A stretch of 48,698 nucleotides of DNA from a virus (taxonomy: Duplodnaviria > Caudoviricetes): IMG/VR virus record IMGVR_UViG_3300020045_006937, positions 1 through 48,698 of that record; one strand, given 5' to 3'. Of the stretch, positions 3,492 through 36,350 are shown piece after piece (the first letter of the stretch is position 1; each line of letters begins with the position of its first letter). Made by a program: the position numbers and the translations under genes. Below the pieces are notes generated by a model that saw only the letters and a program-made list of their open reading frames with translations, had not been told where the DNA came from and did no database searches.

Positions 3492-3494
3492 ATA

Positions 3495-4154
3495 TTAAGC
3501 AGTTTTTTGGTTTAACTCTAAAATAGGGGTATCGTTATCTATAACCAAATCATCGGACATGATTATATCCACTGCCCCATTAGCCATTAAGAATTTACGG
3601 CAAAATTCCTTTTTCCCTTCTTCGTCCATTCCATTGAATTCCGCCAAGTCCTCGCTTGTTTTTTTGCCCTTAGCAATCATTTTTTCAAATACTCGCGTTC
3701 CTAATTCATCAATTGTAATTTGACGATTACCCGCGCAATATGCTTCAGCTTCTTCTCTGATTCCTTTGAAAATCTCTTGCACTGCCGCAAACCCAGAATA
3801 GTCATCAGCGCCTACCTTATAGGTTTTAAGCACTAGTATCTTGTCGCCCATATTACGCTTACCCTTTAAAATAAAGTGGTCAGAAGCCATTGTAATCTCT
3901 GTAATATCGGTTTCTAGTACGGCATAGTCCTTCGCGAGTTCGTGCATAGGGTCTTGACAAATATCACAAATGTTTAGTAAGTGTACTGACAATTCCTTAA
4001 ATTTCTTGATAAGTCCTAAATGTACGGGGTACGAGGGGTCAGAAATGTTCGGCACTAAATAAGGTACGCCGTCTTTTATTTCTTGTACAAGGTGAAAAAT
4101 TTTCATTCCGCTCAAACCACTTAGGTCTGGCATGGAGAGTTTGGTAATGTTCAT
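3495..4154 (-). CDS. Hypothetical protein
   Basis: 219-aa ORF in the operon. Confidence 0.75.
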   Translation of the reverse strand: MNITKLSMPDLSGLSGMKIFHLVQEIKDGVPYLVPNISDPSYPVHLGLIKKFKELSVHLLNICDICQDPMHELAKDYAVLETDITEITMASDHFILKGKRNMGDKILVLKTYKVGADDYSGFAAVQEIFKGIREEAEAYCAGNRQITIDELGTRVFEKMIAKGKKTSEDLAEFNGMDEEGKKEFCRKFLMANGAVDIIMSDDLVIDNDTPILELNQKTA

Positions 4155-4441
4155 TACTTAATAGATTTAATGATGTGGTTAATTTTCTTTTCGGCTTCTA
4201 ATTTAGTCTTTACTGTTACAAATGATGAATTAATTACATTCATTAATGTTTGAATCATTTCTTGTTGCTCTTTCATATTATTAGGGTTTAGTTTGTTTCA
4301 TTAAATAACTCACATCAATCGGATTTTCGCTCCACTCAATTCGCATAGCCTTTTTAATTGCCTTCTTTTTCTTTCTCGGCAAATCCTGAAGGCTAACAAT
4401 CTTTACTGTTATTGTTGTTTGTTGTGCGGTTAATATATTCA

Positions 4442-5173
4442 TTATTTCAAAATCTCACAAGCTGGTGCTACATAATCAATATACAGTTTCCCTCCAATAT
4501 GCCCCGTTCTTGCCACTTGACAAGTTCTTTGGGTGTTACATGTATCGCGTAAATTAAAGCAATTCTCAGGGACTGCACTACCCTTATCAACACAGTCAGT
4601 GCAACGATAAGGGAACACCCCGCGGATACCTATATTATCCTGAAGTAAGCATTTATTCTCAGCACTTTTAAACACTTCTTGAAACGAAGCAAATCCAGTA
4701 CTCCAATTAATAGTATCGGAAACGGTGGCGCGAATCACTGCATTACACCCATCCTCACAACTAATATCAAAACTCTCAAACTTTGTGTTAACCGAGCATT
4801 CAAAAATATTTATCCCCGATTTATATCCTAAAGGAACTGCAACCTGACAAGGTAAATTATCCCCGCCGAAACTAATCACAACCCCCAAAAGCGGATTTGA
4901 ATTAGTGGACTCATAAGTTGCGCCCCTTTCAGCGTAGAAGTATCCTTTACTTACACTAATAGTGTCAGTGATGCCAAACATTCCCCAAACCTGATTCGGA
5001 GACTGTAAAGTTACATACACCTTAATCTTATCCTCTTTACTCAGATTTCTTATAACGAGTCCTGTGTAAACAACGGGAGCTGAAGGGACATTGTCACACG
5101 CCACCTTAATTATACATCCTATGCCAGTTAAAGTACAGATTATTGCAAATGCTAATAAAATTTTTGTTTTCAT
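4442..5173 (-). CDS. Secreted/membrane-anchored Cys-rich protein, possible thaumatin-like fold
   Basis: N-terminal hydrophobic signal; ESFDISCEDGCNAVI resembles the thaumatin DFYDISLVDGFN motif; many Cys. Confidence 0.5.
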   Translation of the reverse strand: MKTKILLAFAIICTLTGIGCIIKVACDNVPSAPVVYTGLVIRNLSKEDKIKVYVTLQSPNQVWGMFGITDTISVSKGYFYAERGATYESTNSNPLLGVVISFGGDNLPCQVAVPLGYKSGINIFECSVNTKFESFDISCEDGCNAVIRATVSDTINWSTGFASFQEVFKSAENKCLLQDNIGIRGVFPYRCTDCVDKGSAVPENCFNLRDTCNTQRTCQVARTGHIGGKLYIDYVAPACEILK

Positions 5174-5339
5174 ATATTTAGTTTTTGTTTATTTCGTCTT
5201 CGAGTTGTGCACTTAATTTGTAATTAGCCTCTAAAAGATTACTCTTATTCTCACTCAATAAAGGTAATTTAGGGATAGCCCTTTCAATCCACTCCATTTG
5301 AACAATTATTTTTTTAGCTTCTTCAGTCAATTCCATTTG

Positions 5340-5394
5340 TTACAATTTTTTGTAATTAATTTTAATTCGCGGGAAAAATTACAGTTTATTGTAA
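5340..5394. repeat. Paired TTACA-N6-TGTAA element 1
   Basis: Boxes 5340-55 and 5379-94, 23-bp gap. Confidence 0.85.
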
Positions 5395-5757
5395 CTATCC
5401 TTTAATCTCTAATTCTTGTTTGTTTAGCACGTAATATAAGTTCTGAAGTTCGTGCAAGTAATTTACATCAATCCCTTGTATAAAAACAAATCCTTTTTCC
5501 TCCAACGACAATACAAAGTTATTTAAAATATAAAGAGCGCCTTCTACGTGCTTAAACCCACACCATTCAGTTAAAATTTCAGGAGTTAAAGGGATAGGCT
5601 TCAAGTCCGCCACATCAACACTATTAATCACTTTTATCTTTTTGTCAAAGCGCAACTTCCCATACAAATGAACTTTCGCCCCGTCACGCCCATTAATTTT
5701 ACAGACAATCCCCTGCTCAAACATATTCCCTAATCTTAAATCCCTTTTATCCAACAT
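5395..5757 (-). CDS. Bacteroidota-phage conserved hypothetical (LRxGN..PIPLT..HELQNLY family)
   Basis: Paralogous motifs shared with 30085..30501. Confidence 0.75.
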   Translation of the reverse strand: MLDKRDLRLGNMFEQGIVCKINGRDGAKVHLYGKLRFDKKIKVINSVDVADLKPIPLTPEILTEWCGFKHVEGALYILNNFVLSLEEKGFVFIQGIDVNYLHELQNLYYVLNKQELEIKG

Positions 5758-8106: not shown

Positions 8107-8143
8107 CCTGATAATCAGTATATATTTATCTATTTTTATAATC

Positions 8144-8176
8144 TTTGTAACCTTTTTACTATAAACTAAGTATAAC
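8144..8176 (+). promoter_or_regulatory. Promoter of the TGTAACCTTTT family
   Basis: TTTGTAACCTTTTTACTATA is shared with sites at 15421-47, 19361 and 30781; precedes the early gene array. Confidence 0.6.
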
Positions 8177-8217: not shown

Positions 8218-8724
8218 ATGAAAACCTTAACCGATTACGACAAACAAGCTATTGAGTTCTTACACAAGTGTAACGTTCAATTTAAAGCTGAGTTTTTAAA
8301 GCATGATAAGCATTTTGCGGACGATAAAGAACCCCGCGATATTTACAAACTAACCCTAACTAGAGGTAAAAGAGCTGTAAGTTTTGAGTTTGGGCAATCT
8401 ATTAAACACAGCGGTAAATATATTGTTTACAGAAACGGAAACAAAGCATTCCCCTATAATGTATACGATAAGCCAACTGGATATGTGCGTTTAAATATCG
8501 ACTATCATTTAAACCCTGATTTTGAAGTTCCCAACGAATACAGTCTATTAGCTACCCTTCAAAAATACGAAGTAGGCACATTAGAAAACTTCTGTGATGA
8601 GTTTGGCTATGATGTAGATAGTAAAAAAGCCGAGAAAATTTATGAGGCTGTTTGCGATGAATACGCTAAAGTTTGTATGATTTTTAACGATGAGGAATTA
8701 ACCGAGTTACAAGAAATCAACTAA
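8218..8724 (+). CDS. Early hypothetical protein
   Basis: 168-aa ORF after the promoter. Confidence 0.8.
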   Translation: MKTLTDYDKQAIEFLHKCNVQFKAEFLKHDKHFADDKEPRDIYKLTLTRGKRAVSFEFGQSIKHSGKYIVYRNGNKAFPYNVYDKPTGYVRLNIDYHLNPDFEVPNEYSLLATLQKYEVGTLENFCDEFGYDVDSKKAEKIYEAVCDEYAKVCMIFNDEELTELQEIN

Positions 8725-8799
8725 GCCATGAAAGACTTAACACTACTTAGTATTGATGAGCAAATAATAGTAGCTATACAATACATTGCTAATTAGATA

Positions 8800-8851
8800 G
8801 TTCTCGCAGTTTTCGGGAGGTTGGGCGAGGACAAAGGGCAGTCTATTTAGA
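8800..8851. repeat. GC-rich dispersed ~52-bp repeat, copy A
   Basis: GTTCTCGCAGTTTTCGGGAGGTTGGGCGAGGACAAAGGGCAGTCTATTTAGA closely matches 29465-29516. Confidence 0.75.
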
Positions 8852-10137: not shown

Positions 10138-10383
10138 ATGAGTAATTTAAAACATACACCACCCCACTTCCAAGAAAGAAACCCAATGGAAGCACCATTA
10201 GGATTAAACAATTCCGAGTCTTCGGCTTGGACAAGCGGCTACAATACCGCATTAGAGAACACTAACGCTATTGAACTATTAGAGGCTTTGATGGAATTAA
10301 GTGAATTGGTTAAAAATGCGGGGCATGATTTATGGCTTGAACATTCAGGAAGTAACAACGCAATTAAAAAAGCAACTGAATAA
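10138..10383 (+). CDS. Early hypothetical protein (ELLEAL..AIKKATE type)
   Basis: 10296-10371 is identical to 21933-22008. Confidence 0.75.
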   Translation: MSNLKHTPPHFQERNPMEAPLGLNNSESSAWTSGYNTALENTNAIELLEALMELSELVKNAGHDLWLEHSGSNNAIKKATE

Positions 10384-12698: not shown

Positions 12699-13154
12699 TT
12701 ATTTCTCTCCCTTCTCGTTTGATGGATTAAGGAGGGATTTCCAACAGTCTTTCATTGCGTTGTACGATTTTAACTCAGCCCGTAAACCCTCGTTCTCTTT
12801 TTGTTGCTCTCTTATTTTATCCGATAATTGAGCTACATCGAATGCGTTTAGTTTCTCTAATCGCTCATTCTCTTTGTCTTTTTGGGTGAGGAGGGATTCA
12901 AGTCGATTAATTTCATTATTACATCCGACTATGTAATTGTAATGGTCATCCGATGCCGAGTCTATTAGTTCTTGCTTTAACCTTTCAATCTCCCCCTTAG
13001 CTTGGGTGAGTTGGTGTTCGTAGAAGTAGTAACAAAAATTAATAAAATCTTCCCAATTAATATTACAGATACCTTCTAATGAAGTGTATTTTGTTTTAAA
13101 AAATTCGTTATACGATTCAAGTAGTATCTCCTCTTTCGTTTTATCTTGGCTCAT
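12699..13154 (-). CDS. Mosaic coiled-coil protein, left-arm cassette gene
   Basis: Shares MSQDKTKEE, HQLTQAKGEIERL, SLLTQKDKENE and NPSNE with 23119..23628. Confidence 0.8.
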   Translation of the reverse strand: MSQDKTKEEILLESYNEFFKTKYTSLEGICNINWEDFINFCYYFYEHQLTQAKGEIERLKQELIDSASDDHYNYIVGCNNEINRLESLLTQKDKENERLEKLNAFDVAQLSDKIREQQKENEGLRAELKSYNAMKDCWKSLLNPSNEKGEK

Positions 13155-13296
13155 TTTTGTGGGGGTTTATTTCCTTTGTGGGAGTTAATATTTTATTTAT
13201 TTTCTCATAGTAAGCCGTTAAATCACAAGTCTGCATTTTAACTCCTTTATTATAAATTTCAAACAATAAATTTTCTATTTTATTTTTCTTACTCAT
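13141..13296 (-). CDS. Small hypothetical protein (51 aa)
   Basis: Manual translation MSKKNKIENLLFEIY..NEPR; overlaps neighbours. Confidence 0.5.
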   Translation of the reverse strand: MSKKNKIENLLFEIYNKGVKMQTCDLTAYYEKINKILTPTKEINPHKNEPR

Positions 13297-13420
13297 TAGT
13301 TAATATATAATATACCTGATTAAACAATTCATTACGATAGTCTTCTATTGAGTCAAACCCTTCATTTTCTAAGGCTGTTATGTATTTAGCCATCTTAATC
13401 GCTTCTTTTAATTTCTTCAT
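13289..13420 (-). CDS. Small hypothetical protein (43 aa)
   Basis: MKKLKEAIKM..; starts inside anchor 8 like 22744..23103. Confidence 0.55.
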   Translation of the reverse strand: MKKLKEAIKMAKYITALENEGFDSIEDYRNELFNQVYYILTNE

Positions 13421-13425
13421 CTCTC

Positions 13426-13785
13426 TTATGGTTTAGGGGTGGTTAAATAATAGTTAATAACAAATTCAAGTTGTTCGTGGAATGTAGGGTATTTAAATTC
13501 TTTCGATTCGTATAATTCCAAATTGGTTTTAATCATTATTTGGCGATACTCCTCAATAATTGATTCGTAAAAATAATCGTGAGTCACGCCTTCGTCGGCA
13601 TAATCAAACATTTTTAACTTACTTGCTATATCCGAACATTTTAAATGCGACTTCCAAGTATATAAATCATCATATATATGAACCGACCTCTCGTAACTTT
13701 CACCTTTTTCAATAACTCCAAGACAGTAATTACACTGATGTTGTTTGTTTGCTTTGGTTTTAGTTGGCTCTAATATTGTTCTCAT
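13426..13785 (-). CDS. Zn-finger-like hypothetical protein
   Basis: KANKQHQCNYC..HLKC; ends YLTTPKP. Confidence 0.75.
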   Translation of the reverse strand: MRTILEPTKTKANKQHQCNYCLGVIEKGESYERSVHIYDDLYTWKSHLKCSDIASKLKMFDYADEGVTHDYFYESIIEEYRQIMIKTNLELYESKEFKYPTFHEQLEFVINYYLTTPKP

Positions 13786-13791
13786 TTCCCT

Positions 13792-13983
13792 TTAGCCTTT
13801 AGATTGGTTGATTAAAATAAAAAGAACAATTAAGAAAACTACAAACTCAATAATAGCAACTTTAGTTTTTACTTCTTTAGAGTCTAATTCCTCTCCTTTT
13901 AGTATTCTATTTTTATTATTTATGTACTCGTTAATTGTTGTTGCTAATGGAAAGAAAATTAGCCAAATTATAATATTTATCAT
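13792..13983 (-). CDS. Small two-TM membrane protein
   Basis: Two hydrophobic stretches. Confidence 0.65.
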   Translation of the reverse strand: MINIIIWLIFFPLATTINEYINNKNRILKGEELDSKEVKTKVAIIEFVVFLIVLFILINQSKG

Positions 13984-13985
13984 CC

Positions 13986-14426
13986 TTATTTAGTTTTAGA
14001 TTGTTTGAATATTGAGTAGAGTTCTTGGGTTGTTGCATATTCTATATGTAAAGTACCTCTTTGCCATTGTTCATTCAAATTAAATTCCCAATTATTATCA
14101 CTCAACCACTCCGCAAACTCCACCGCCTCACTCTTATCCGTTACGGTGGAGGGGGAAAATAGCTTATCGTAAATTAAAATAGCTTGGTTTATTGCGTTTT
14201 TATATTCAACGTTTCCTGCAATATGTGATTCATATCTTAAATCAATAAGTTTTTGTTTATATGTGCTTATGTTAAGTTTATAATTTTCAATTACCATTAC
14301 ACCCTCAACCATTTCAGCACAATTAGATTCAATTACGATTTTCATGTGAGGGTGGTGGTTTTCAGCAAGCCACTTCATAACGGGTCTTACTACCGCTTCA
14401 AATTCTTTTTGTTTTTCGTCGCTCAT
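13986..14426 (-). CDS. Mosaic hypothetical protein, left-arm cassette gene
   Basis: SPSTxTDKSEAVEF and TTQELYSIxKQSKTK are shared with 21748..22452. Confidence 0.8.
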   Translation of the reverse strand: MSDEKQKEFEAVVRPVMKWLAENHHPHMKIVIESNCAEMVEGVMVIENYKLNISTYKQKLIDLRYESHIAGNVEYKNAINQAILIYDKLFSPSTVTDKSEAVEFAEWLSDNNWEFNLNEQWQRGTLHIEYATTQELYSIFKQSKTK

Positions 14427-14427
14427 T

Positions 14428-14871
14428 TTATTTACGTTTAAATTGTTTAGCTTGTTTTTCTGTTACTTGTATTGAAATCAATTTTTGTTTACAGCCACTA
14501 CAAACCGTTCCCGTTTCTGGCGTGTAAGTAGTGTTGAACTTATGGTTGCAATCCTCTTTAGTCTCCCCCTCTTTTACATTTGAGAGGCGGGATTTAGATT
14601 GTAGTTTTTTAATTAAATGGTCTATTGCATTATCACACGCCTCAACATCACTAAAAGGAATTGGATTTAACCACTCTTTCATTATTAGTAATCTATTAAT
14701 TATCTCCTCATCACTCACCACCTCTTTATCGGGAGGGAGGGAAAGGGATTGGAGTAGTTTTTGTTCAATCCATTTTATATAGTCAGTATGCCAATCCATA
14801 AACGCCATTTGATTATTTGGACATTTTTTGCCACTCTCTTTTTCGTATAATTCTTTTATCTTACTTTCCAT
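14428..14871 (-). CDS. Mosaic hypothetical protein, left-arm cassette gene
   Basis: First ~55 aa and SRLSNVKEGE are shared with 21748..22452. Confidence 0.8.
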   Translation of the reverse strand: MESKIKELYEKESGKKCPNNQMAFMDWHTDYIKWIEQKLLQSLSLPPDKEVVSDEEIINRLLIMKEWLNPIPFSDVEACDNAIDHLIKKLQSKSRLSNVKEGETKEDCNHKFNTTYTPETGTVCSGCKQKLISIQVTEKQAKQFKRK

Positions 14872-14881
14872 TTTTTTTGAT

Positions 14882-15037
14882 TTAATCGTTAATTCTCATT
14901 CCTATTAATATTGGCACTCCTATTGGAGAAAAAACAAACCATATAAAATGCCTTAAAGCTAAATTTGGTTGATTCATTAACACTCCAATTCCAATTAGAT
15001 ATGAAATAATTGTGTATGTTATTATAATATTTTCCAT
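14882..15037 (-). CDS. Small membrane protein (51 aa)
   Basis: MENIIITYTIISY..LIGMRIND; paralog of 21581..21736. Confidence 0.7.
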   Translation of the reverse strand: MENIIITYTIISYLIGIGVLMNQPNLALRHFIWFVFSPIGVPILIGMRIND

Positions 15038-15048
15038 TTGGTTGTTTA

Positions 15049-15396
15049 TTAATTGGTTATTCTGTCTAGTAATTCTTCCACGTATAATTGCAACTTCACT
15101 ACTCTTTCTCCCGCCAGTATTGTAAAGTGGTCAAAGCCATTACTTCCTTTATATTCCCGCGAATCTGTGTCACTATCAACCGTCACCCATTCTCCGTCTT
15201 CTATCCAATGAAAGGTTATTTTGGCGGAATTCGGTGTGCTTGGTAGCATATTAGCACCTGTGTTGTAATTACCAAATTCAAATGAATAAGATAAATTTAA
15301 CTCGGCAGGAATAGAATTACAGTTCTCCGCATAGTTTGAGATAGCCATATCAACTAGTCCAGTTAAATATTGCTCATTTAGGTTATTTAGTTTCAT
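15049..15396 (-). CDS. Hypothetical protein (start revised to ATG 15396)
   Basis: The ORF-track start lies inside the promoter repeat. Confidence 0.7.
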   Translation of the reverse strand: MKLNNLNEQYLTGLVDMAISNYAENCNSIPAELNLSYSFEFGNYNTGANMLPSTPNSAKITFHWIEDGEWVTVDSDTDSREYKGSNGFDHFTILAGERVVKLQLYVEELLDRITN

Positions 15397-15447
15397 AGGT
15401 TTATTTTTCTTAGTTAAACGCAAATATAGTAAAAAGGTTACAAAGTT
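15394..15447 (-). promoter_or_regulatory. Bacteroidota sigma70-type promoter plus leader, duplicate of 30777-30830
   Basis: AACTTTGTAACCTTTTTACTATATTTGCGTTTAACTAAGAAAAAYAAACCTATG, 53/54 identical; TAnnTTTG -7 box. Confidence 0.85.
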
Positions 15448-15992
15448 TATTTTCTTTTCTTATAATTCTTATTAACGTGTTCTAAATAGCTATTAATCAG
15501 TGCGGTTAATTTTTTATCTTGCTCCCCGTAAAAATCCCCGTTAAAGCAAACAAGTTCATATTCTCCAGTCCAAGTCTTATAAAACTCAGCCCTTACATAT
15601 AATTTAGAATAAGTTAGGTTTGGATTGATAAGGAACTGTTTATCGGTAAAGGTTGGAAATAAAAATCCATTCTCTATAAGCCAAATAAATAGTTCTCGCA
15701 AAACTGGGATAGATTTTCTGATATGCCCGTTCTCGCATCCGTAATGCTCTGTTCCTTTAATCACTGCTTGCTGATACGTCTTTAAAAGCGATTCTGAGTA
15801 TTTTAACGTGTTATCTGCTCCTGATTGGTATATAAGGAAGGAAAGGAAAGAAAATTGATTAGGGGGTAAAATAAACGCCATATTAGCGTAGTGCTTAGTA
15901 AACACCCTCCCTTTTTTTCCATCTTCTAGTTCGGGGAAGTCCCAGAGCTTCTTAGTTTTTGTTAGCTGTGTTCTTTTTGTGTTCATTTCCAA
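15447..15992 (-). CDS. Winged-HTH / Rep-maintenance-like protein
   Basis: FTKHY..FSFLSFLIY..LIENGFL..FLINPNL pattern. Confidence 0.55.
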   Translation of the reverse strand: MEMNTKRTQLTKTKKLWDFPELEDGKKGRVFTKHYANMAFILPPNQFSFLSFLIYQSGADNTLKYSESLLKTYQQAVIKGTEHYGCENGHIRKSIPVLRELFIWLIENGFLFPTFTDKQFLINPNLTYSKLYVRAEFYKTWTGEYELVCFNGDFYGEQDKKLTALINSYLEHVNKNYKKRK

Positions 15993-16225
15993 GCCTCCCC
16001 GCTACCATCTGAATAAATGGTGCAATCGCGGTTATTTTGCATATATGCTAAAAATGTTTTTAATTCTTTTTCACTCCATCTACCTCCCCAAAATCCATTA
16101 TGTGCACTATCTGCTCCTTCTTTAATAAATACTGGCTCTCCTAATGCTGTTTTTCTGTATTCATAACCAATAGATTTTAAATCTCGGTTAATTTTCCATT
16201 GTTTTATTCTTCTTATTAAATTCAT
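15983..16225 (-). CDS. Hypothetical protein
   Basis: Operon ORF. Confidence 0.7.
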   Translation of the reverse strand: MNLIRRIKQWKINRDLKSIGYEYRKTALGEPVFIKEGADSAHNGFWGGRWSEKELKTFLAYMQNNRDCTIYSDGSGEAWK

Positions 16226-16376
16226 TTTGTTTTTTACGTTTAAGGTATAGTTTCTTTTTGTAAGCGGATATTTTATCTTTATTTTTAATGTAGTACTCGG
16301 CGGAATATTTATTGTGATTTTCCCGCCGATTTAGGTAATATTTTCTATTAAGTAATGAGGTGTTTTCCTTTGACAT
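16188..16376 (-). CDS. Basic Lys/Tyr-rich small protein (resembles HNH N-terminal tails)
   Basis: YYIKNKDKISAYKKKLY; likely start ATG 16376. Confidence 0.45.
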   Translation of the reverse strand: MSKENTSLLNRKYYLNRRENHNKYSAEYYIKNKDKISAYKKKLYLKRKKQNEFNKKNKTMEN

Positions 16377-16797
16377 AATATAATCCATATTTAGCGTAAT
16401 GTTTATTCCAAATTTTAGCTCTTTCATATTCTGCTTTTTCTTCATCTCTCCAATTCTTTTCTATCATTTCAAAAGCTTCCTGAAAATCTTTAATTGTTGC
16501 GTTTCTATTATACGGCTTCATTTCCCCTTTTTCAATTTCGGCAATTAATCCATCTCCTTTTGGTAGCGGAGGGAATTCTAATAATTCGCATACAGATTGG
16601 TGGTTATATGAAGTGTCCATATCATAAGCTTCATGCACCTCTTTTGGAATTTTACGGTATATAGCTTCGTCTGGGAAATGCTCAGGATATCTTTCTACTA
16701 TTTCCTTGCATTTTTGGTAATTAGAGCTACCGCAAAAGCCCTGCATTTTTATTATATGCACCCACCAAACTTCATTTGGTATGTCGTTTAAATTCAT
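16348..16797 (-). CDS. Hypothetical protein
   Basis: Operon ORF. Confidence 0.75.
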   Translation of the reverse strand: MNLNDIPNEVWWVHIIKMQGFCGSSNYQKCKEIVERYPEHFPDEAIYRKIPKEVHEAYDMDTSYNHQSVCELLEFPPLPKGDGLIAEIEKGEMKPYNRNATIKDFQEAFEMIEKNWRDEEKAEYERAKIWNKHYAKYGLYYVKGKHLIT

Positions 16798-17243
16798 AAG
16801 CGGTTAAAATAATTAATCATATTCTGTAAATTAGTGACTTTACAAGCTATGTTTATTGCCTTTACATTTTCACTCACTGAGCTATCAATATCGTGCTTAA
16901 TTAAAACTTGAGTGATGTGTTTACCCTCTGGTTCTTTTTCCCCGCCGATTCTAATTCCGCCTTGCTGTCTGCCTTTTACAAGCTCTATCATTGTAAATCC
17001 GCTAATAAAGAAATATCCCCGCCGATTTAATTCTATAAAGCCATTAGTCTTTAAAGTTTTCATTATAAATTCATCCGACCAATCGTTAGGATTAACCACT
17101 GTGATGTTAGCCCACTTAGCGCCAATAGTACTAAACAGTAAATTAGTTAAGCGTTCTCTTATTCTTAATTTCGGAATTCGGGGGAGCTTAAATTTCTTTT
17201 TATACGGCAATTGTTTTTCACTATAAACGGTTACATTATTCAT
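16794..17243 (-). CDS. Hypothetical protein
   Basis: Operon ORF, ATGA coupling. Confidence 0.75.
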   Translation of the reverse strand: MNNVTVYSEKQLPYKKKFKLPRIPKLRIRERLTNLLFSTIGAKWANITVVNPNDWSDEFIMKTLKTNGFIELNRRGYFFISGFTMIELVKGRQQGGIRIGGEKEPEGKHITQVLIKHDIDSSVSENVKAINIACKVTNLQNMINYFNRL

Positions 17244-17384
17244 TTTAATTTCTTTTTAGCGGTTTTAGTGTATTTCTTAGCTCTGCGTAATCTTGGCTTT
17301 CCTATGTATTCATGGTTTAAGTCTAAGCCAGTACAACAAAATCTCTTTAAGAGTCTTTCGTGGGTTTGTGCCATTGTTTCCATA

Positions 17385-17678
17385 TCATTTTCTTTTAAAG
17401 CTATTACAAAATAAGTCCTTCAACTCTTGGATGGCGGTTTTTATTCTCGCCGATTTTGAATCATGATTTGGCGGAGATGAATCTTGTACATCTAATTTAC
17501 CAGTATAATATCTTTCTTCCTCGCTAAAAGCATCTACTATGCCACTCCCCTGATACCCCTCTCGCCAAGTACCCAAATCCCGCGGGACACCTGTTATATG
17601 GTCATCAAAATTAGGTTTTAAGGTTTTGTGTACTTGTCCCATAGTTATGGGAGATTGTTTGTCGGCTTGTCTTTTCAT
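17385..17678 (-). CDS. Hypothetical protein
   Basis: Operon ORF. Confidence 0.65.
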   Translation of the reverse strand: MKRQADKQSPITMGQVHKTLKPNFDDHITGVPRDLGTWREGYQGSGIVDAFSEEERYYTGKLDVQDSSPPNHDSKSARIKTAIQELKDLFCNSFKRK

Positions 17679-17694
17679 AGTTATTTTTTAGCGG

Positions 17695-18387
17695 TTAATA
17701 TACCATTCCGTTTTGCGAGGGGTTAAAACTTTCCCGCCGCTCTACCTTCTTTTTAACACCCTCTATTTCTTTAATACAGACCCGTACAGCGTTTTTAAAG
17801 TGATTTATGTCCGTAAACTCAGCGTAAGGGTATCTATCGTTTAAAGCGGCTAGAATTGATTCTTCTGTTGTTGTTTCTTTTTTTATAGCTATTACGGCTT
17901 TGTATATTTCTATATTACTATTAATAGCCGTTATTAAATCAAAAAAACTGGCGGAGCCTATTTTTATTTTATTTAGTACATTAGTATTTTGTGTATTAGT
18001 ATTTAGTAGTCCTTCCTTTTCAACCCGTTGATTTTCTACCCCTACAAAACCAACCCCTACGTTTTGGGGGGGTTGAGCCTTTTCGCCGTTCCACGGAATA
18101 TCATAAACTATATGCTCATATTCATATTTGCCATTTTTATGTCGCTTAACTGACATTATATATCCAGCCTTTTGAAGTTCTTTAAAAACCCTGTCAATCT
18201 TTTTTTCACCGCCGAAATTCACCATTTCTTTTTGTGTATGTAGGGTTACTTTGTAAATAATCCAATCGTGAGGAAGTGTTAAAAAGTAGCAAAGCATCCC
18301 GCAAGCCTCAGCGCTTAATCCGTTTTTAAAAATAGAGTTTGGTATAGAGGTAAAGTTACCAGCGTGTTTAGATTTGTGTATTGGCAT
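17695..18387 (-). CDS. HTH replication-initiator-like protein (start revised to 18387)
   Basis: NFTSIPNSIF..LSAEACGMLCYFLTLPHDW..KELQKAGYI is typical of phage replisome-organizer N-termini. Confidence 0.75.
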   Translation of the reverse strand: MPIHKSKHAGNFTSIPNSIFKNGLSAEACGMLCYFLTLPHDWIIYKVTLHTQKEMVNFGGEKKIDRVFKELQKAGYIMSVKRHKNGKYEYEHIVYDIPWNGEKAQPPQNVGVGFVGVENQRVEKEGLLNTNTQNTNVLNKIKIGSASFFDLITAINSNIEIYKAVIAIKKETTTEESILAALNDRYPYAEFTDINHFKNAVRVCIKEIEGVKKKVERRESFNPSQNGMVY

Positions 18388-18394
18388 AAAAAAG

Positions 18395-18449
18395 TTACAG
18401 TTTTTTGTAATTAATTTCACAAATCGAAATTTGTTACAGTTTTTTGTAA
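18395..18449. repeat. Paired TTACA-N6-TGTAA element 3
   Basis: Boxes 18395-410 and 18434-49. Confidence 0.85.
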
Positions 18450-18450
18450 C

Positions 18451-18562
18451 AAAAAGAAACCTCCGCTTTATAACTTGGACATTACCGTGGCGGAGGTTCT
18501 TTAATTTTGGAGCAATAGCCCCTAAGAAAAGTCGTGAATTTCAATATTCACAGTAATGTCCG
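18451..18562 (-). promoter_or_regulatory. Structured attenuator-like leader
   Basis: 9-bp complement 18477-85/18553-61; hairpin 18458-66/18490-98 with T-tail on the minus strand. Confidence 0.55.
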
Positions 18563-18653
18563 ATACAAAAATATGTAATTTATATAACAGCTCAATAAGC
18601 CAGCAAAGGAAGTTTTCAACAAGATTTCAAAAGAACGTGATAAAGGTCATCTA

Positions 18654-18890
18654 TTAACACTCAGAGCAATCACTTTTAGCTACACTACGGGTACTAGTAA
18701 CCCCGCTATTCCTTAATTGCTGACATTTATCAATAGCGCCCTTTTCAGAACTCTCACAACTAAACTTCTGTTCTTTGCCGTTTTGGTATCCATACACGCA
18801 CCATACTCCAGATTGCGGAGAGTTATTCTTTTTTTGACAGCTTAACATCATTCCGATTGTTAAAGCTATAATCATTAGTTTTTTATTCAT
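18654..18890 (-). CDS. Small lipoprotein
   Basis: MNKK + hydrophobic stretch + LSC lipobox, Lys-rich after Cys; TGTAACCTTTT..GTATAAC promoter at 18934-18964 (minus). Confidence 0.75.
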   Translation of the reverse strand: MNKKLMIIALTIGMMLSCQKKNNSPQSGVWCVYGYQNGKEQKFSCESSEKGAIDKCQQLRNSGVTSTRSVAKSDCSEC

Positions 18891-19360
18891 TTTGTTTGGT
18901 TTTTTATTAATACTTAGATTAGTTTGATGATGGGTTATACTGAGTCTATTGATAAAAGGTTACAAAAATAGGCATTTTCTTTCGTTATTTTTATTTTTTA
19001 ATCCTATATCACCCCTTTATACATCGAGTTCCGTAAAAATCTGGCGTATGCTCTATTATTAACCCGCCAAAAACACCCAAAATCTTTGATAGTTTATTAT
19101 AAAAACATTATTGAGAGCCCTTAATTCACTCTTTTTATTAATAAATTTATTACCTTTGAACCAGCATCTGGTACTTAGTAATATAGAGTCACTCCCCCTT
19201 CCCATTAGAACAGGGCGCTTAGGAGTGACCTTTTTTTTAACCACACAGTAAGCCGAACCCTAACTAAATACCCCTCCACCCTCGCCACATAACCGTAATC
19301 CGCGTGCACTAAAAATAATTAAGCTAATAATCAGTCAGTTATAAACATTTTGTAAAACAT

Positions 19361-19412
19361 TGTAACCTTTTTACTATCTTTACGTTTGAATACATATAAC
19401 AACGTTCATTGA
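19361..19412 (+). promoter_or_regulatory. Promoter plus boxA-like antitermination site
   Basis: TGTAACCTTTTTACTATCTTTACG homologous to the other promoters; GTTCATTGA at 19404-12 resembles rrn boxA GTTCTTTGA. Confidence 0.6.
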
Positions 19413-19422
19413 TAATTTAAAA

Positions 19423-20282
19423 ATTAGCAACAAAAAGGAAGCCCTTTGAGAACCAACGTACAAATGTGTATGAGGAACAAAATAAGGGATACTTTTTCTA
19501 ATCTATGAATAGGCATACATGCCACGAAAGATATGATAGAGTTCAAACCAACATTCGCACATTAGAGGCGAGAGGGTATGTAAATTGAACACTGGAGAAT
19601 TGAGTTTGAATGTACAACAAACAAGACGTTCTTTGGTAGATTAGATAGCTAATAAATAAAGGGTTTAGAGGTGGAAAAATGATTGTAGTGTCCAATGTCC
19701 CCTCTTTACCTTTAAGATATTAAAAGCAACACAACGGACAAGGCTTAGGCACTGACCGCCCGAGCTTGTAAACAAAGGAGGGAAAGTGATGGGTAGCGAA
19801 CAGTTAAGACACTCATTAAACGTAATCAGCGAATAACTGTAATCGTTAAGAGGTGGTTGACCAGTTGCTTTTATAAGATAGTTGCATCTATGTAACGCTA
19901 TTGGTGTTGGTAAAATAATATAACCCGACTTCCTAATAGTCTACGATTGATGATTTATATGGACTGTAATGGTTCTTATATAATTGTAAGAGTAGATAAG
20001 TAGATGCAAAATAACCCCCGCCGATTTAAAATTGTTACAGAATTTGTAATTTTTAAATGTAAAGGTTTTGTGTTACAAAATTTGTATCAAAACAAAGTTG
20101 GCGGGGAAGTCACTAAAAATATGGAGGGGGAATTCTCATAGCGCGGACATGGCATAGATGAGAGTGTGAGAATGGTAGTTTGTGTCTAAAACCGCCCCCC
20201 TTCATATTTTACAAACATTAGCTGTTCTAGCATCGTTACTTACGCTAGTTTCTAAAGGAGGGTGCTCTAATCCCTCCACTAA
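19423..20282 (+). ncRNA. Tandem array of about six structured RNA modules
   Basis: No ORF of 60 aa or more; terminal stems at 19423/19653, 19658/19713, 19721/19873, 19882/20009, 20116/20210 and hairpins in 20218-20282. Confidence 0.7.
20035..20087. repeat. Paired TTACA-N5-TGTA(A) element 4
   Basis: Boxes 20035-49 and 20073-87, bracketed by CCCCGCC/GGCGGGG. Confidence 0.8.
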
Positions 20283-20303
20283 GAGTAAACTAAAACTAAA
20301 CCT

Positions 20304-20630
20304 ATGAACATTATAATCTCACTATTTATTTTATCTGCTATTGTATTTCCAATAGCATTGTATAAAAGGTCGAAATCCCTTAAATTTAGGCTTATAGAGC
20401 ACAATAATTTAGGATTGAAGTCTTATACTCCCCAAGTCAGAATCGACGGGATATGGCTTTATATTGTCATAAACAACGACTTTGTAATGGTTGATACAAA
20501 TATGGGTGACGCGTTTTTAGACGCTCACGATGCAATAGCTTTAATTGAAAATTTTAAATCGGCGGGACATTTTATAATCCTAAGCAACCGTAAACTTAAT
20601 AATAACGAGAAATCAATAATAATTGAATAA
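20304..20630 (+). CDS. Membrane-anchored hypothetical protein
   Basis: N-terminal TM helix. Confidence 0.7.
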   Translation: MNIIISLFILSAIVFPIALYKRSKSLKFRLIEHNNLGLKSYTPQVRIDGIWLYIVINNDFVMVDTNMGDAFLDAHDAIALIENFKSAGHFIILSNRKLNNNEKSIIIE

Positions 20631-21027
20631 TATGGGAAGTTATACAGAATTAATTTTCGGGGCAAGTCTTAAAAAAGAAACGCCGCCAGATGTAATTGAA
20701 ACGTTAAAGCATTATTGCGGATTAGTTGAATTGCCAGAAGAACAACTAGTATTTAAAACAAAGTCGGGGCGCAATCCGTTAAATATGGGCGGTAGTTATT
20801 ATTTTGGAGTTATTAATACTGACCCTCAAATGATTTATGATAAAATTCGCCCATCTTGGTATATTTCATCTAGAACTAATTTAAAGAATTACGAAAATGA
20901 AATTGAAGATTTTCTTAAATGGGTAAAACCATATTTAGATTCAGGTAGTGGTGAAAGAGAGTTTTATGCCATTGTAACTTATGAACAAGGAGAGCCGACA
21001 ATTTATTATTTAGAAGAAGAAGAATAG
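20623..21027 (+). CDS. Conserved phage hypothetical protein (likely start MGSYTEL at 20632)
   Basis: LKNYENEIEDFLKWVKPY motif. Confidence 0.8.
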   Translation: MNNMGSYTELIFGASLKKETPPDVIETLKHYCGLVELPEEQLVFKTKSGRNPLNMGGSYYFGVINTDPQMIYDKIRPSWYISSRTNLKNYENEIEDFLKWVKPYLDSGSGEREFYAIVTYEQGEPTIYYLEEEE

Positions 21028-21104
21028 CTTACGTAACCCAGTGATAATAATTAACCCTCCCCTCGCCCAAACTAACGGCATCTGCGGGAACAAAAATAAA
21101 GATT

Positions 21105-21347
21105 ATGAGTATTTATCAATTACATACTTATTTTAACATGAAACCACTCCACAATGAATGCGTTATTAATAACGCTCGTGTTGATTATGATGCGTGTTCT
21201 ACGGGGTCAAAAAAAGAAGCAGATGAGTTCTATGGAAAAAACTTTGATTATATGGGCTCAGGGTTTACTACCTATCATAACGGCACAAAAAACGATTGGA
21301 CAGAAGAACATCATTTTTACAAACTAAAGCCAATAAATAAAACATGA
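21105..21347 (+). CDS. Hypothetical protein
   Basis: Operon ORF. Confidence 0.7.
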   Translation: MSIYQLHTYFNMKPLHNECVINNARVDYDACSTGSKKEADEFYGKNFDYMGSGFTTYHNGTKNDWTEEHHFYKLKPINKT

Positions 21348-21580
21348 AACAACAAGACAAAAACTTTCTATTTACAATCAGAGATTTTAAATGGAATCAA
21401 GTAAGAAAAGACTCTAAGCGTAGAGTGATGAATATTTTTACTTCGCGGGGACTAACAAAGGAGTACGTTGATATGTGCTATGGAGAGATGGATTTATTCA
21501 CCGCCATTAAATTAATCAAATAAGAGTCCTGAACGAACTTTAGAGATTCAGTTTTAAGAGAAATTTAAATAAACAACCAA

Positions 21581-21736
21581 ATGGAAAACATTATAATAAC
21601 ATACTCGATTGCCTCTTATTTTATAATATTAGGCTCTTTAATTGATTGTAAAATAATAAGAATAGGACACGTTATGAGCTTTATTTTTTCGCCATTTACG
21701 GTTCTACTTTTAATAGGAATGAGACTTAATAATTAA
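21581..21736 (+). CDS. Small membrane protein (51 aa)
   Basis: MENIIITYSIASY..LIGMRLNN; paralog of 14882..15037. Confidence 0.7.
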   Translation: MENIIITYSIASYFIILGSLIDCKIIRIGHVMSFIFSPFTVLLLIGMRLNN

Positions 21737-21747
21737 CACCCAACCAA

Positions 21748-22452
21748 ATGGAAAGTAAGATAAAAGAATTATACGAAAAAGAAAGTGGTCGTAAGTGCCC
21801 AAATAATCAAATAGGATTTATGGATTGGCATACCGACTACATAAAATGGATTGAACAAAAACTACTCCAATCCCTTTCCCTCCCTCCCGATAAAGAGGTG
21901 GTGAGTGATGAGCTGTTAGAGGCTTTAATTACATTAAGTGAATTGGTTAAAAATGCGGGGCATGATTTATGGCTTGAACATTCAGGAAGTAACAACGCAA
22001 TTAAAAAACACAAAGAATCCCGCCTCTCCAATGTAAAAGAGGGGGAGGTAATGAGCCTGTTTAATTCTGATAAATTTATTCAAAATGTATGTCTTAGTTA
22101 TCGCCACGATTTTGGATTAATGTCAGAGAAAGATAAGCAACTAATATTGTTTGAATGCAAAGAGTGGATGAGGGCAATAACTAACAACTCTCCAAAATCC
22201 CCCTCCACCGAAACGGATAAGAGTGAGGCGGTGGAGTTTGGTGATGATTTTGAAGGAGAGCGACCTGAAAAATACTTAATTAACTCAATATTCTCAAATG
22301 TAAAACAGATTGATGCGATTGATTTTACTGAGTGGATTTATAATAATGATATTGAAAAAGCCGCTAATAATAGATGGTATATGGTTAAAAAAAGAGAATT
22401 TAAAACAACCCAAGAACTCTACTCAATCTACAAACAATCTAAAACTAAATAA
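21748..22452 (+). CDS. Mosaic hypothetical protein, right-arm cassette gene
   Basis: Contains four anchors shared with 14428..14871 and 13986..14426, plus an insert identical to part of 10138..10383. Confidence 0.85.
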   Translation: MESKIKELYEKESGRKCPNNQIGFMDWHTDYIKWIEQKLLQSLSLPPDKEVVSDELLEALITLSELVKNAGHDLWLEHSGSNNAIKKHKESRLSNVKEGEVMSLFNSDKFIQNVCLSYRHDFGLMSEKDKQLILFECKEWMRAITNNSPKSPSTETDKSEAVEFGDDFEGERPEKYLINSIFSNVKQIDAIDFTEWIYNNDIEKAANNRWYMVKKREFKTTQELYSIYKQSKTK

Positions 22453-22454
22453 AT

Positions 22455-22535
22455 TCCAATAGTATATGGTGGCGTTCGAAACAAGCTTATTTTGGAAATC
22501 TTATAAGGGTGGATTAAAGCCTAAGTACTATTGGA
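22455..22535 (+). ncRNA. Stem-closed RNA-like module in a cassette slot
   Basis: TCCAATAGTA 22455-64 pairs perfectly with TACTATTGGA 22526-35. Confidence 0.45.
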
Positions 22536-22567
22536 TATTTTATAACCAATCTAAAGGTTAAAGGGAA

Positions 22568-22738
22568 ATGAGAAAGTATTATATAAAAGAAGGGTATAAC
22601 GATGAGATTCAGATTTCTGTTTATAAAGTTTACAAACGTAGACTATTTGGATTACTAAATCCTAAATATATCACTTGGTTTTTTTATAAGGCAAACGCAG
22701 AAAGGCATATTAAATATTTAACCACCCCTAAACCATAA
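22568..22738 (+). CDS. Small hypothetical protein (56 aa)
   Basis: MRKYYIKEG..YLTTPKP; same start and end anchors as 13426..13785. Confidence 0.65.
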   Translation: MRKYYIKEGYNDEIQISVYKVYKRRLFGLLNPKYITWFFYKANAERHIKYLTTPKP

Positions 22739-22743
22739 GAGAG

Positions 22744-23103
22744 ATGAAGAAAGGATGTAAAAAAGCATTACCACAATCAATAGGTATATTATTTATCAGA
22801 TGGAATTTATGTAATAGAGTTGCCGTTGCTGTTGCATATTTTGAAGAAGGTGAGATGGTTTATATGACTATTAGTAAGAGTAAGATGATGAAACTATGTG
22901 ATAATTTTCTGTCAAATAATGTTACTTACGAATTTATTTCAAATTATCCAATAGCGATGAAAAATAAAAAAATAAACGAAGTGGTTTGGAACAATATGGC
23001 TATTCAGCAAAACGGAATTTTAGAATTAAAAACAACATCACAAATTGCATATAAATTAAACAAAGAAGGTTTTAACAAATTTGCTAAAATTTATCTTAAA
23101 TAA
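22744..23103 (+). CDS. Hypothetical protein
   Basis: Operon ORF between anchors 8 and 9. Confidence 0.7.
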   Translation: MKKGCKKALPQSIGILFIRWNLCNRVAVAVAYFEEGEMVYMTISKSKMMKLCDNFLSNNVTYEFISNYPIAMKNKKINEVVWNNMAIQQNGILELKTTSQIAYKLNKEGFNKFAKIYLK

Positions 23104-23118
23104 CCCCCCCCCACAAAA

Positions 23119-23628
23119 ATGAGCCAAGATAAAACGAAAGAGGAAGTAATACAAGAAGCAGAACAATTTAAAAGTAATTATTACAGTTACTTTAACGAAA
23201 AAGGAATACGGGTATATGAAGCAATAACAGTAGTTAAAATGCTTAATGATTACGCCCACCACCAACTCACCCAAGCTAAGGGGGAGATTGAAAGGTTGCG
23301 AATGGAATTATCCGTAATAGAAGAAGAAAAATTACAAACAGAATTACAGTGCTTAATAGAAGAAAGGAAAGCCGATAAGCTCCAATCCCTCCTCACCCAA
23401 AAAGACAAAGAGAATGAGGCTAAGTGGATAAGTGTTGATGAGAGGTTGCCTGAGAATGAACAAGATGATATTAGTAAAGTAAAATTGAGTAAAAAAGTAT
23501 TAGTAGTTTATAGTACGGGAATTATCAATACTGCATTTTATGATTATGAGTTTAATCGGTTTACTTGTGAACTTTACGATATTGTAACCCATTGGATGCC
23601 CTTACCACCTAATCCATCAAACGAATGA
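23119..23628 (+). CDS. Mosaic protein with C-terminal DUF551-like domain
   Basis: WISVDERLP..VTHWMPLP; anchors shared with 12699..13154. Confidence 0.8.
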   Translation: MSQDKTKEEVIQEAEQFKSNYYSYFNEKGIRVYEAITVVKMLNDYAHHQLTQAKGEIERLRMELSVIEEEKLQTELQCLIEERKADKLQSLLTQKDKENEAKWISVDERLPENEQDDISKVKLSKKVLVVYSTGIINTAFYDYEFNRFTCELYDIVTHWMPLPPNPSNE

Positions 23629-29460: not shown

Positions 29461-29464
29461 AATG

Positions 29465-29516
29465 GTTCACGCGGGTTTCGGGAGGTCGGGCGAGAGCGAA
29501 GGGCAATTTATTTAGA
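29465..29516. repeat. GC-rich dispersed ~52-bp repeat, copy B
   Basis: Closely matches 8800-8851. Confidence 0.75.
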
Positions 29517-30084: not shown

Positions 30085-30501
30085 ATGGAAAGTAAAGAAT
30101 TAAGAATAGGGAATTTTATAGGTAATAAATACTATCCTAATAACCTTTATAAGGTTGAATGCGTATTACACTCATCAATTCATTATGAGGATGTTTACCC
30201 TTGGAAAGGTACAGTTGGTGTTTTTGCATTAGACAACGCATTACCAATCCCCCTAACCGCTGAATGGCTTCAAAGGTTTGGGTTTGAATTTTCTTGGATG
30301 TCAGGTCGGGCTTTAATACAGAAAAAGATTAAATACGATTTAAGATTTGTTAGACCTTATTACAAAGATAATTTAGGTGAATTAGAATTAGATTTACGTA
30401 ATGGTTCAACATCACTTAACACTAAAGTTAGACACGTCCACTCCCTTCAAAACCTTTACTTTGCTTTAACAGGTGAAGAATTACAACTCGGCGGGAAATG
30501 A
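30085..30501 (+). CDS. Bacteroidota-phage conserved hypothetical
   Basis: ELRIGN..PIPLT..HSLQNLYFALTGEEL. Confidence 0.8.
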   Translation: MESKELRIGNFIGNKYYPNNLYKVECVLHSSIHYEDVYPWKGTVGVFALDNALPIPLTAEWLQRFGFEFSWMSGRALIQKKIKYDLRFVRPYYKDNLGELELDLRNGSTSLNTKVRHVHSLQNLYFALTGEELQLGGK

Positions 30502-30773
30502 CAATAAAGCTATCAGATAACTTTCTTTCTAAGAACCCTAAGTTTAACCGTAAAGAGCAACAGTTAATAATAGGAACGCTATTGAATAAAATAAGTCTAA
30601 CAACGAAAAGAAGTTCTGTAGTTAATATAAAGTTAAGGAAGTTCGGCACTATTCACACGCACGGAAATAAGAAAAGAATGTCGAAATTAAAATATTTAAG
30701 GCGCTATAACAAAATGAAATATAATGAAAATCAAGAACTTGAAAAATATTCTCTTAAAAAACTACTATTTTAA
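30498..30773 (+). CDS. Basic protein, possibly HU/IHF-like
   Basis: IKLRKFGTI resembles the HU VxLxGFGxF motif. Confidence 0.45.
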   Translation: MTIKLSDNFLSKNPKFNRKEQQLIIGTLLNKISLTTKRSSVVNIKLRKFGTIHTHGNKKRMSKLKYLRRYNKMKYNENQELEKYSLKKLLF

Positions 30774-30776
30774 CAC

Positions 30777-30830
30777 AACTTTGTAACCTTTTTACTATAT
30801 TTGCGTTTAACTAAGAAAAACAAACCTATG
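30777..30830 (+). promoter_or_regulatory. Promoter plus leader, duplicate of 15394-15447
   Basis: 53/54 identity; TATATTTG -7 box. Confidence 0.85.
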
Positions 30831-31591: not shown

Positions 31592-32236
31592 ATGGCAGAA
31601 GGCTTACAGGACAAACAAGGAAGTAACAAAAAGTTTATGAAATTAAAAGAAGACAAACGCGACGGCTCTAAAACTAAAGGTCAATACCGCTTCTTTCAAC
31701 AAGAAAAAGTGAACGGAGTTTGGACTTCAACAAACGAAGGAAACTCAATGTCAGGTGTATTAAAATCACTTGAAACCAAAGCATATCAGTATGAAGGCGA
31801 AACTAAAGAAAACTTAGAAGTAACCCTTCAAGGTGAAAGCGGAACTGATTATGTTATTTCGTTTGGATTTAATACAGGTATCACTGAGAACTTGCTTAAC
31901 GCAATGGCTCACGAACCTATCATTGGAACAATTGAAATGAATTGTGGATTACCTAAAAACGATTATCCAACTCTTTACATTAACCATAATGGTCAAAAGA
32001 CTACTTGGAAATATTCTAAGGATGCTGGAAATTGGGACGAAATTCCTAAAATCACTACTATCACGGACGAAGATGGCAACAAGATTAAAAAAGGGGCTAA
32101 GGCTAAAACAGAGTTCTTTAAAAAGCTTTTGGCTGAAGTGCAGGCTAAGTTAGCCCCTCTTTCTCCCGCGAAATCGGCAGTAACTAATGAAAACTCACAA
32201 CCCGTTGATGATGGAAACGATTCGTTGCCCTTCTAA
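31592..32236 (+). CDS. Probable single-stranded DNA-binding protein
   Basis: Acidic C-tail DDGNDSLPF; replication context. Confidence 0.7.
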   Translation: MAEGLQDKQGSNKKFMKLKEDKRDGSKTKGQYRFFQQEKVNGVWTSTNEGNSMSGVLKSLETKAYQYEGETKENLEVTLQGESGTDYVISFGFNTGITENLLNAMAHEPIIGTIEMNCGLPKNDYPTLYINHNGQKTTWKYSKDAGNWDEIPKITTITDEDGNKIKKGAKAKTEFFKKLLAEVQAKLAPLSPAKSAVTNENSQPVDDGNDSLPF

Positions 32237-36027: not shown

Positions 36028-36350
36028 TCCTGAAGATATAGGAGAGTGGTTTGGGAAGGTTGTTAAATCGTATAATGAAGTAGAGAGATTATGACAGCAC
36101 GAGATGAATTTTATGATACACTTGGTGCATCGATTTTATTTTCTTGTGCATTTTGGTTAATTTTTTACATAATTAAAATAATATACAAATGGATTTCGAG
36201 AAACTAAAAATAGAATTACAAGCCTATATACAATGGTTTGAAGAAAAGTATAATTATACAGACCTTAGAGATATTAATAGTATAGAAGATTGGCAACTTT
36301 ATGTTAGCGCAAAGCAATTTATAAATTGTATTTAACCCCCACCCCCAAAA

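Follow-up and report, generated by a model that had tools for sequence, protein, structure and literature searches.

Cassettes between twelve fixed-order DNA anchors in two inverted small-gene operons of an uncultured phage

The window analysed here is the whole linear record of an uncultured phage (IMG/VR record IMGVR_UViG_3300020045_006937; 48,698 bases), which has an estimated completeness of ~64%, about a third of the genome being missing, and all window results come from this single unreplicated contig. Its genes include a helicase, a primase-helicase, two exonucleases, a RusA-like resolvase, a replication-initiator-like protein, homing endonucleases, and many small unannotated open reading frames (ORFs). 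Two operons of such small ORFs, here termed the left and right arms, lie in inverted orientation around a central segment and are threaded by the same 12 short DNA blocks, the anchors A1 to A12. Each interval between consecutive anchors is referred to as a slot. The arms and anchors are arranged as follows, with each partner being the right-arm copy.

12699-15050, minus strand: left arm, seven small ORFs threaded by anchors A1-A12
14882-15037, 14428-14871, 13986-14426, 13792-13983, 13426-13785, 13141-13296, 12699-13154, minus strand: left-arm ORFs
15051-21567: central segment, 6.5 kb, divergent transcription units, replication-initiator-like ORF at 17695-18420
21568-23628, plus strand: right arm, with anchors A1-A12 again running through five small ORFs
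21581-21736, 21748-22452, 22568-22738, 22744-23103, 23119-23628, plus strand: right-arm ORFs
15014-15050, minus strand: A1, partner 21568-21604 (36/37), start region of a 51-amino-acid gene
14894-14908, minus strand: A2, partner 21710-21724 (15/15), end of the 51-amino-acid gene
14779-14873, minus strand: shared N-terminal module, earlier counted within A3, partner 21746-21840; the opening 105 coding bases differ at 12 positions
14707-14778, minus strand: A3 core, partner 21841-21912, 72-nt exact run inside an ORF
14563-14594, minus strand: A4, partner 22016-22047 (31/32), inside an ORF, folds as a hairpin
14114-14156, minus strand: A5, partner 22198-22240 (42/43), inside an ORF, 8-bp inverted repeat
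13986-14034, minus strand: A6, partner 22404-22452 (47/49), at a gene end; the copy in the right arm matches foreign contig L012 at 48/48
13779-13809, minus strand: A7, partner 22544-22574 (30/31), gene junction
13412-13449, minus strand: A8, partner 22715-22752 (38/38), gene junction
13129-13165, minus strand: A9, partner 23108-23144 (37/37), gene start
12979-13016, minus strand: A10, partner 23260-23297 (38/38), inside an ORF, predicted long helix
12864-12898, minus strand: A11, partner 23384-23418 (35/35), inside an ORF, predicted long helix
12715-12729, minus strand: A12, partner 23610-23624 (15/15); left copy extends to 24/24 with L012

Self-comparison bears out the description given in a first-pass annotation of this DNA, namely 12 inverted, colinear, near-identical blocks, with coordinates within a few bases of those claimed. 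The anchors measure 15-167 nt each, are 93-100% identical between arms, and agree at 519 of 537 bases overall. Exact runs of at least 15 nt shared between the arms number 16, the longest being 72 nt and eight being at least 24 nt, compared with a mean of 0.03 runs and a longest run of 16 in 300 shuffles that kept dinucleotide content exactly or approximately. Each anchor occurs once per arm, and the anchors resemble one another over no more than 11-14 nt. At least five fall within reading frames, while A1, A7, A8, and A9 overlap start codons. What had been taken as a single third anchor divides in two, with 60 nt forming a true anchor without differences and the preceding 105 nt belonging to a shared module with 12 differences; this N-terminal module precedes a different linker in protein P0119. 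As the annotation had also noted, one right-arm gene (ORF 21748-22452) spans what are two genes on the left (ORFs 14428-14871 and 13986-14426), and the inserts keep the frame, since in all six slots that lie wholly within an ORF on both arms the length difference is a multiple of three.

The DNA between the anchors had been called unalignable and unrelated. Local alignment remains at shuffle level in 10 of the 11 slots (200 mononucleotide shuffles, p 0.095-0.93), with slot A3-A4 being marginal (p 0.005, score 25, best shuffle 28). For proteins the description stands only in part: slot A1-A2 holds an equal-length diverged allele of one gene on both arms, and in slot A5-A6 the arms carry variable members of a single large family of proteins, to which most of the 150 listed profile matches belong. 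Because these two slots hold diverged homologues, their inserts are not unrelated at the protein level. The behaviour of ordinary paralogues, which the annotation had set against its own claim, is thus seen in the proteins of two slots and in none of the remainder. Four further features bear on the origin and content of the inserts.

21909-22008, plus strand: right A3-A4 insert, a 94% copy of 10272-10371
10138-10383, plus strand: 81-amino-acid ORF without anchors; its match to the right A3-A4 insert lies in the 3′ half
23422-23616, plus strand: DUF551 domain (Pfam PF04448, E 7e-10, residues 102-166), filling the right A11-A12 slot
36351-36641, plus strand: third, diverged family member with A9-, A10-, and A12-like segments (A12-like 26/31 nt)

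The ORF at 10138-10383 is the likely donor of the right A3-A4 insert, if the direction of copying is read correctly from the sequence. The copy reaches to within a few codons of the stop of this ORF and joins the anchors at 3-4 common bases, and capture of the insert by microhomology may explain this arrangement. The module in the right A4-A5 slot is found in 14 other proteins with different flanks, with weak matches in Tetrasphaera and Rhodobacter phages.

The same anchors are found in other genomes. Protein searches recovered foreign proteins with anchor peptides from other metagenome contigs, and at least two anchor motifs are present in 22 of the 194 proteins scanned (4 from the window, 18 foreign). 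All 22 keep the window order, including 18 of 18 foreign proteins, a figure that is an upper bound given the colinearity bias of protein searches. Among 11 proteins of the A9 family, related pairs amount to 1/45 in slot A9-A10, 1/21 in slot A10-A11, and 0/21 in slot A11-A12, and the two related pairs are incongruent, one joining P0003 with P0027 and the other P0003 with P0026. An A10-A11 cassette of 35 residues recurs unchanged in P0003, P0026, and P0192, and its upstream and downstream neighbours differ in all three. Similarly, P0192 and P0193 agree over ~197 residues through A5 and A6, after which one stops and the other continues via A10, A11, and A12. At the protein level, these comparisons show that cassettes are reassorted at the anchors between genomes, slot by slot. 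The proposal that anchors serve as junctions for swapping small modules is therefore upheld, as the order is fixed and the inserts differ per slot in other sequences; comparing anchor order with insert variation in other contigs, as the annotation had advised, gave this same result from mostly protein-level data. Three pairs of proteins (P0003/P0046, P0030/P0109, and P0026/P0193) are recorded on contigs of equal length, so that the two halves of the anchor series may stand together in other genomes as well. The same modules also stand behind other recurring linker peptides (e.g., ending in VSSRF or VISRF, or QERMYSE), in P0006, P0009, P0011, P0015, and P0018, in P0012 and P0013, and in P0060, P0066, and P0073, which suggests that several separate anchor sets may draw on one module pool.

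Foreign anchor DNA comes from the metagenome contig L012, the only one kept of 15 loci in the scan, as the other 14 were dropped as chance matches with unmatched context and flanks. Here, A6 matches the right arm at 48/48 bases, the 3′ part of A5 matches at 26/26, and A12 matches the left arm at 24/24, giving 98/98 bases over three blocks. The best match of its upstream genes to the window is no better than E 0.2. L012 mixes right-type (A5, A6) and left-type (A12, the bases after A6) variants, and because its anchors are as identical to the window as one arm is to the other, the identity of the arms requires no exchange within the genome. Outside the 12 anchors, a 28/29-nt intergenic match joins window positions 36035-36063 to L012 positions 3378-3406, possibly a further anchor. 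Scans of IMG/VR, from which records very close to the window may be missing, returned helicase relatives and two chance matches only, with no anchors, and none were found in GTDB genomes; GenBank phages gave no match found as an anchor. The two nearest virus records by helicase (G001 and G002; 41-42%) have no anchors and no such arms. A helicase relative, L002, carries at 2729-5627 its own 35-68-nt repeat family among small genes, unrelated to the window anchors.

The anchors are also kept at silent sites. Degenerate third positions differ between arms at 2/92 sites in the anchors, compared with 6/28 in the adjacent shared module (Fisher p 0.002), a count that is partly circular, as the anchors are defined by identity. 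Together with the 98 unchanged bases of L012, this answers in the affirmative the question, raised in the annotation, of whether synonymous sites are conserved in anchors.

In their base composition, several anchors are polar. Of the strongest windows of the contig that run from C-rich to G-rich, 9/13 fall on anchors (five distinct anchors), and the opposite polarity gives 6 peaks. That this polarity is a mere copy of start-codon surroundings is only partly supported: leaders upstream of 70 starts are poor in G (8.6%), with no G-rich leader, and C is not raised (16.1% vs 15.5%). Hairpin folding is found for A4 and A5 (z down to -4.9 and -3.0), and most other anchors fold no better than shuffles. 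Specific hairpin pairing of anchor halves was rejected, as the halves of one anchor pair no better than the halves of other anchors (permutation p 0.84 for RNA, 0.61 for DNA; hand-picked centres), so that folding looks compositional; Rfam gave no match for the anchors. Hybrid anchors also occur. The left half of A3 is joined to the right half of A5 in L012/P0023, whose sister P0045 has the same N-terminus and keeps A3 and A4 intact, and the left half of A4 is joined to the right half of A5 in P0046. We read these hybrids as what rare crossovers between unlike anchors would leave behind.

The explanation that best fits these observations, and that we consider probable, is that the arms are two copies of one accessory operon, in which cassettes between 12 fixed-order anchors have been reassorted among genomes, likely by short-homology recombination. 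According to this model, the anchors (15-72 bases) enclose variable cassettes, and the exchange likely relies on the general pairing of short homologies, by a phage annealase or host RecA, and not on a dedicated site-specific enzyme. One crossover in each of two anchors would swap the enclosed cassette, with a co-infecting phage or a prophage as the partner, and exchange of this kind, when repeated, would keep the anchors identical at silent sites. New cassettes would enter rarely, via a few bases of microhomology, while unlike anchors may cross over at their A-rich centres, resulting in slot deletion or gene fusion. Because there are 12 different anchors, each present once per arm, exchange would proceed like-with-like, with order and frame retained, and the anchors likely serve as joints at which new in-frame proteins are assembled. 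A crossover between the arms is predicted from their geometry to invert the middle of the contig, with the central 6.5 kb as the smallest segment that could be inverted. As the arm copies are themselves inverted, such a crossover would invert rather than delete, which would allow the two arrays to be retained and perhaps to exchange cassettes. Red-beta is given a minimal pairing length of 23-27 bp, and RecA one of 31-34 bp (PMC3945230), which the eight exact runs of at least 24 nt fit. Cassette reassortment between phages is, on these grounds, well supported, and the inversion switch is unproven.

Several points weigh against this model, apart from the circularity already mentioned. Protein searches favour colinear matches, so out-of-order cases would be under-counted, and foreign DNA comes from the one locus, L012, the remaining foreign alleles being known as protein. 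The contrast in silent differences between the anchors and the copied insert (3/30) is not significant (p 0.09). At 15 nt, A2 and A12 are shorter than the cited pairing lengths, and plain homology leaves the hybrid anchors and the C-rich to G-rich polarity unaccounted for. Lastly, searches for RecT, ERF, and Rad52/Rad22 annealases were empty on the ~64% complete contig. On this same contig, searches for integrase, invertase, and resolvase families (PF00589, tyrosine; PF00239, serine) were empty as well, in line with the remark in the annotation that no site-specific recombinase was recognised.

The geometry of the arms permits an engine that works within one genome, as the annotation had proposed, where the inverted arms recombine, invert 6.5-10.9 kb, and convert each other, so that the population holds switchable chimeric proteins. 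The 12 inverted homologies, with their eight longer exact runs, would provide the substrate, as would an additional inverted identity (15394-15447 / 30777-30830). However, L012 is equally identical and mixes variants of both types, making inter-genome exchange sufficient, the nearest helicase relatives lack such arms, and no invertase or integrase family is found on the incomplete contig, all of which leaves this engine unlikely. Somewhat broader is the idea that the anchors are a selected bipartite joining code, with a C-rich left, an A-rich centre, and a G-rich right, and that the two inverted arrays reshuffle themselves by inversion with no partner phage; we regard this as a doubtful, though conceivable, extension. 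The polarity of the anchors, the A4 and A5 hairpins, and the hybrid anchors could also be taken to mean that the anchors are structured sites similar to integron attC, with interchangeable C-rich and G-rich halves and a dedicated recombinase encoded elsewhere. This is improbable, since a common site would scramble the order, which is unscrambled in 18 of 18 foreign proteins; moreover, no common core motif is seen among the 12 anchors, most fold no better than shuffles, cognate halves have no pairing preference, and neither an Rfam match nor a tyrosine or serine recombinase was found, the last on the incomplete contig.

It could also be argued that the anchors are kept solely for protein motifs or translation signals, with the remainder having diverged as in ordinary paralogues. 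The homologous, diverged slots A1-A2 and A5-A6 agree with this, as do the placement of A10 and A11 in one predicted helix and the start codons overlapped by A1, A7, A8, and A9. Yet silent sites are kept too, both between the arms and in L012, and the incongruent sharing of slots largely refutes the idea: gradual divergence cannot produce an identical cassette in three contexts or a 94% gene copy in a slot. We therefore consider it very improbable. Least of all do we expect the contig to be a mis-assembly joining two related phages. It is a single contig, and several of its genes have a counterpart in the other half (phrog_10066 occurs twice), but promoter-like and paired-palindrome repeats are common to both halves, a gene of the left half (8218-8724) and the helicase of the right half occur together on contig L002, and the anchor system itself, occurring in other contigs, would be unaffected.

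The left operon is headed by one of these repeats, and a TATATTTG box sits ahead of this operon.

15394-15447, minus strand: promoter-like and start-codon block, 54 nt, 98% identical to 30777-30830 inverted, including the start codon; heads the left operon

The G-poor leaders and the TATATTTG box fit the Bacteroidota consensus, and we presume the host to be of this group. A full -33/-7 Bacteroidota promoter at 15447-15416 was rejected, as the -7 box alone fits. The promoter-like element is repeated at 8133-8165, 15394-15447, 18934-18969, 19348-19402, and 30769-30830, and resembles a promoter cassette. A second intergenic element of 55-58 nt is present in six copies on both halves of the contig (5340-5394, 11935-11989, 18395-18449, 26356-26413, 29531-29588, and 35973-36027); it is composed of two palindromic TTACA-N6-TGTAA-like boxes ~23 nt apart and looks like an operator family. 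A direct repeat (8797-8851 / 29462-29516; 55 nt, 82% identical) is GC-rich and lies just past a gene end at both sites. The phrog_10066 genes are two distant paralogues (5395-5757 and 30085-30501) on opposite halves and strands. ORF 31592-32236, which adjoins an exonuclease, encodes 214 amino acids with an acidic-aromatic tail, a trait by which we take it to be a possible single-strand binding protein; its ESM Atlas matches are unnamed viral clusters only. One RyR-domain protein (3027-3491) and one GroES-like protein (35429-35956) are also encoded. NCBIfam searches of 23 proteins gave none above cut-off, and ESM Atlas gave no match above 0.83 for P0004.

Among known systems, the closest is found in the eaA-type genes. 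The sole GenBank phage match of P0001 is an Eaa1-like gene, and it contains a 48-nt block that is found in many lambdoid phages while its flanks are not; of the 45 matches listed from 880 records, 21 fall on this block. Five eaA-type genes of named phages (L025-L029) carry ordered 19-59-nt blocks, 82-100% identical, around unrelated inserts, with slots common to different combinations of phages. The eaA/Eaa1/ea22 genes of P22-like and lambdoid phages are thus similar to the present locus in having short DNA blocks around exchangeable modules, and in both DUF551 serves as a portable C-terminal module. Ea22 is described as a mosaic protein that has a coiled coil and C-terminal domains unlike one another, DUF551 among them (PMC10834534). 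Outside DUF551 there is no sequence likeness, and none of the arm proteins has a Pfam or PHROG match to the N-terminal or coiled-coil signature of the Ead/Ea22 family. The present locus also differs from eaA in that the anchor series crosses 5-7 genes and their junctions, the cassettes may hold gene boundaries, and there are two inverted copies. By analogy, the arms likely encode early proteins of the EaA/Ea22 type that interact with the host and have variable modules on a helical scaffold. An AlphaFold model of P0001 places A10, the intervening slot, and A11 on one helix (residues 32-109; per-residue confidence, pLDDT, mostly >85), in a monomer with a predicted template modelling score (pTM) of 0.43 whose C-terminal part is unreliable.

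Modular evolution mediated by linkers is an idea reportedly put forward by Susskind and Botstein, and by Botstein. The locus has the feature it calls for, in that conserved linkers common to phages flank exchangeable modules in fixed position. In PeSL cassettes of T4-type phages, short conserved sequences direct the homologous exchange of small uncharacterized genes; the stems are generally poly-G and poly-C, and no dedicated recombinase was identified (PMC2839356). As presented there, PeSL is one repeated promoter-terminator motif between genes, a direct repeat that gives mini-circles (PMC2839356). In contrast, the 12 anchors are distinct, occur once per arm, lie inside ORFs in at least five cases, and have inverted copies, and it is this use of different anchors rather than a repeated one that fixes order and frame. 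The gp38 adhesins of T2/T6-type phages have hypervariable segments between conserved motifs within one protein (PMC3157838). While gp38 is a single virion protein with structural glycine-rich motifs, the arms encode small non-structural ORFs, with anchors also at junctions. Integron attC arrays and shufflons combine cassette logic with folding sites and inverted arrangement. The locus shares the cassette logic and the inverted arrangement, and some anchors fold, but its order is fixed, there is no common site, and no integrase or invertase was found on the ~64% complete contig. In essence, the locus works like eaA and linker-mediated shuffling, and by defining features it falls outside both the Ea22 and the PeSL family. 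The design has precedent in the eaA genes; its span over a whole operon and the inverted double array within one genome distinguish the present locus. Neither this anchor set nor an inverted form with two arrays was found described in the literature searched, most subscription journals being outside its scope.

The linker hypothesis is old, and its clear experimental case, PeSL, concerns whole genes. In the present locus, the linker idea can be followed below the level of the gene and through an entire operon: the joints have names, each slot has many natural alleles, and the capture of new material is visible, which makes the crossover points predictable and testable. Should inversion take place, one phage could vary its arm proteins with no partner, and if the joining code is real as well, code and inverted arrays would together form a self-contained combinatorial diversifier of host-interaction proteins that draws on a shared cassette pool. 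The locus also suggests how the many small phage proteins that lack annotation could originate in frame, and the same design in eaA genes suggests that this may be a general rule.

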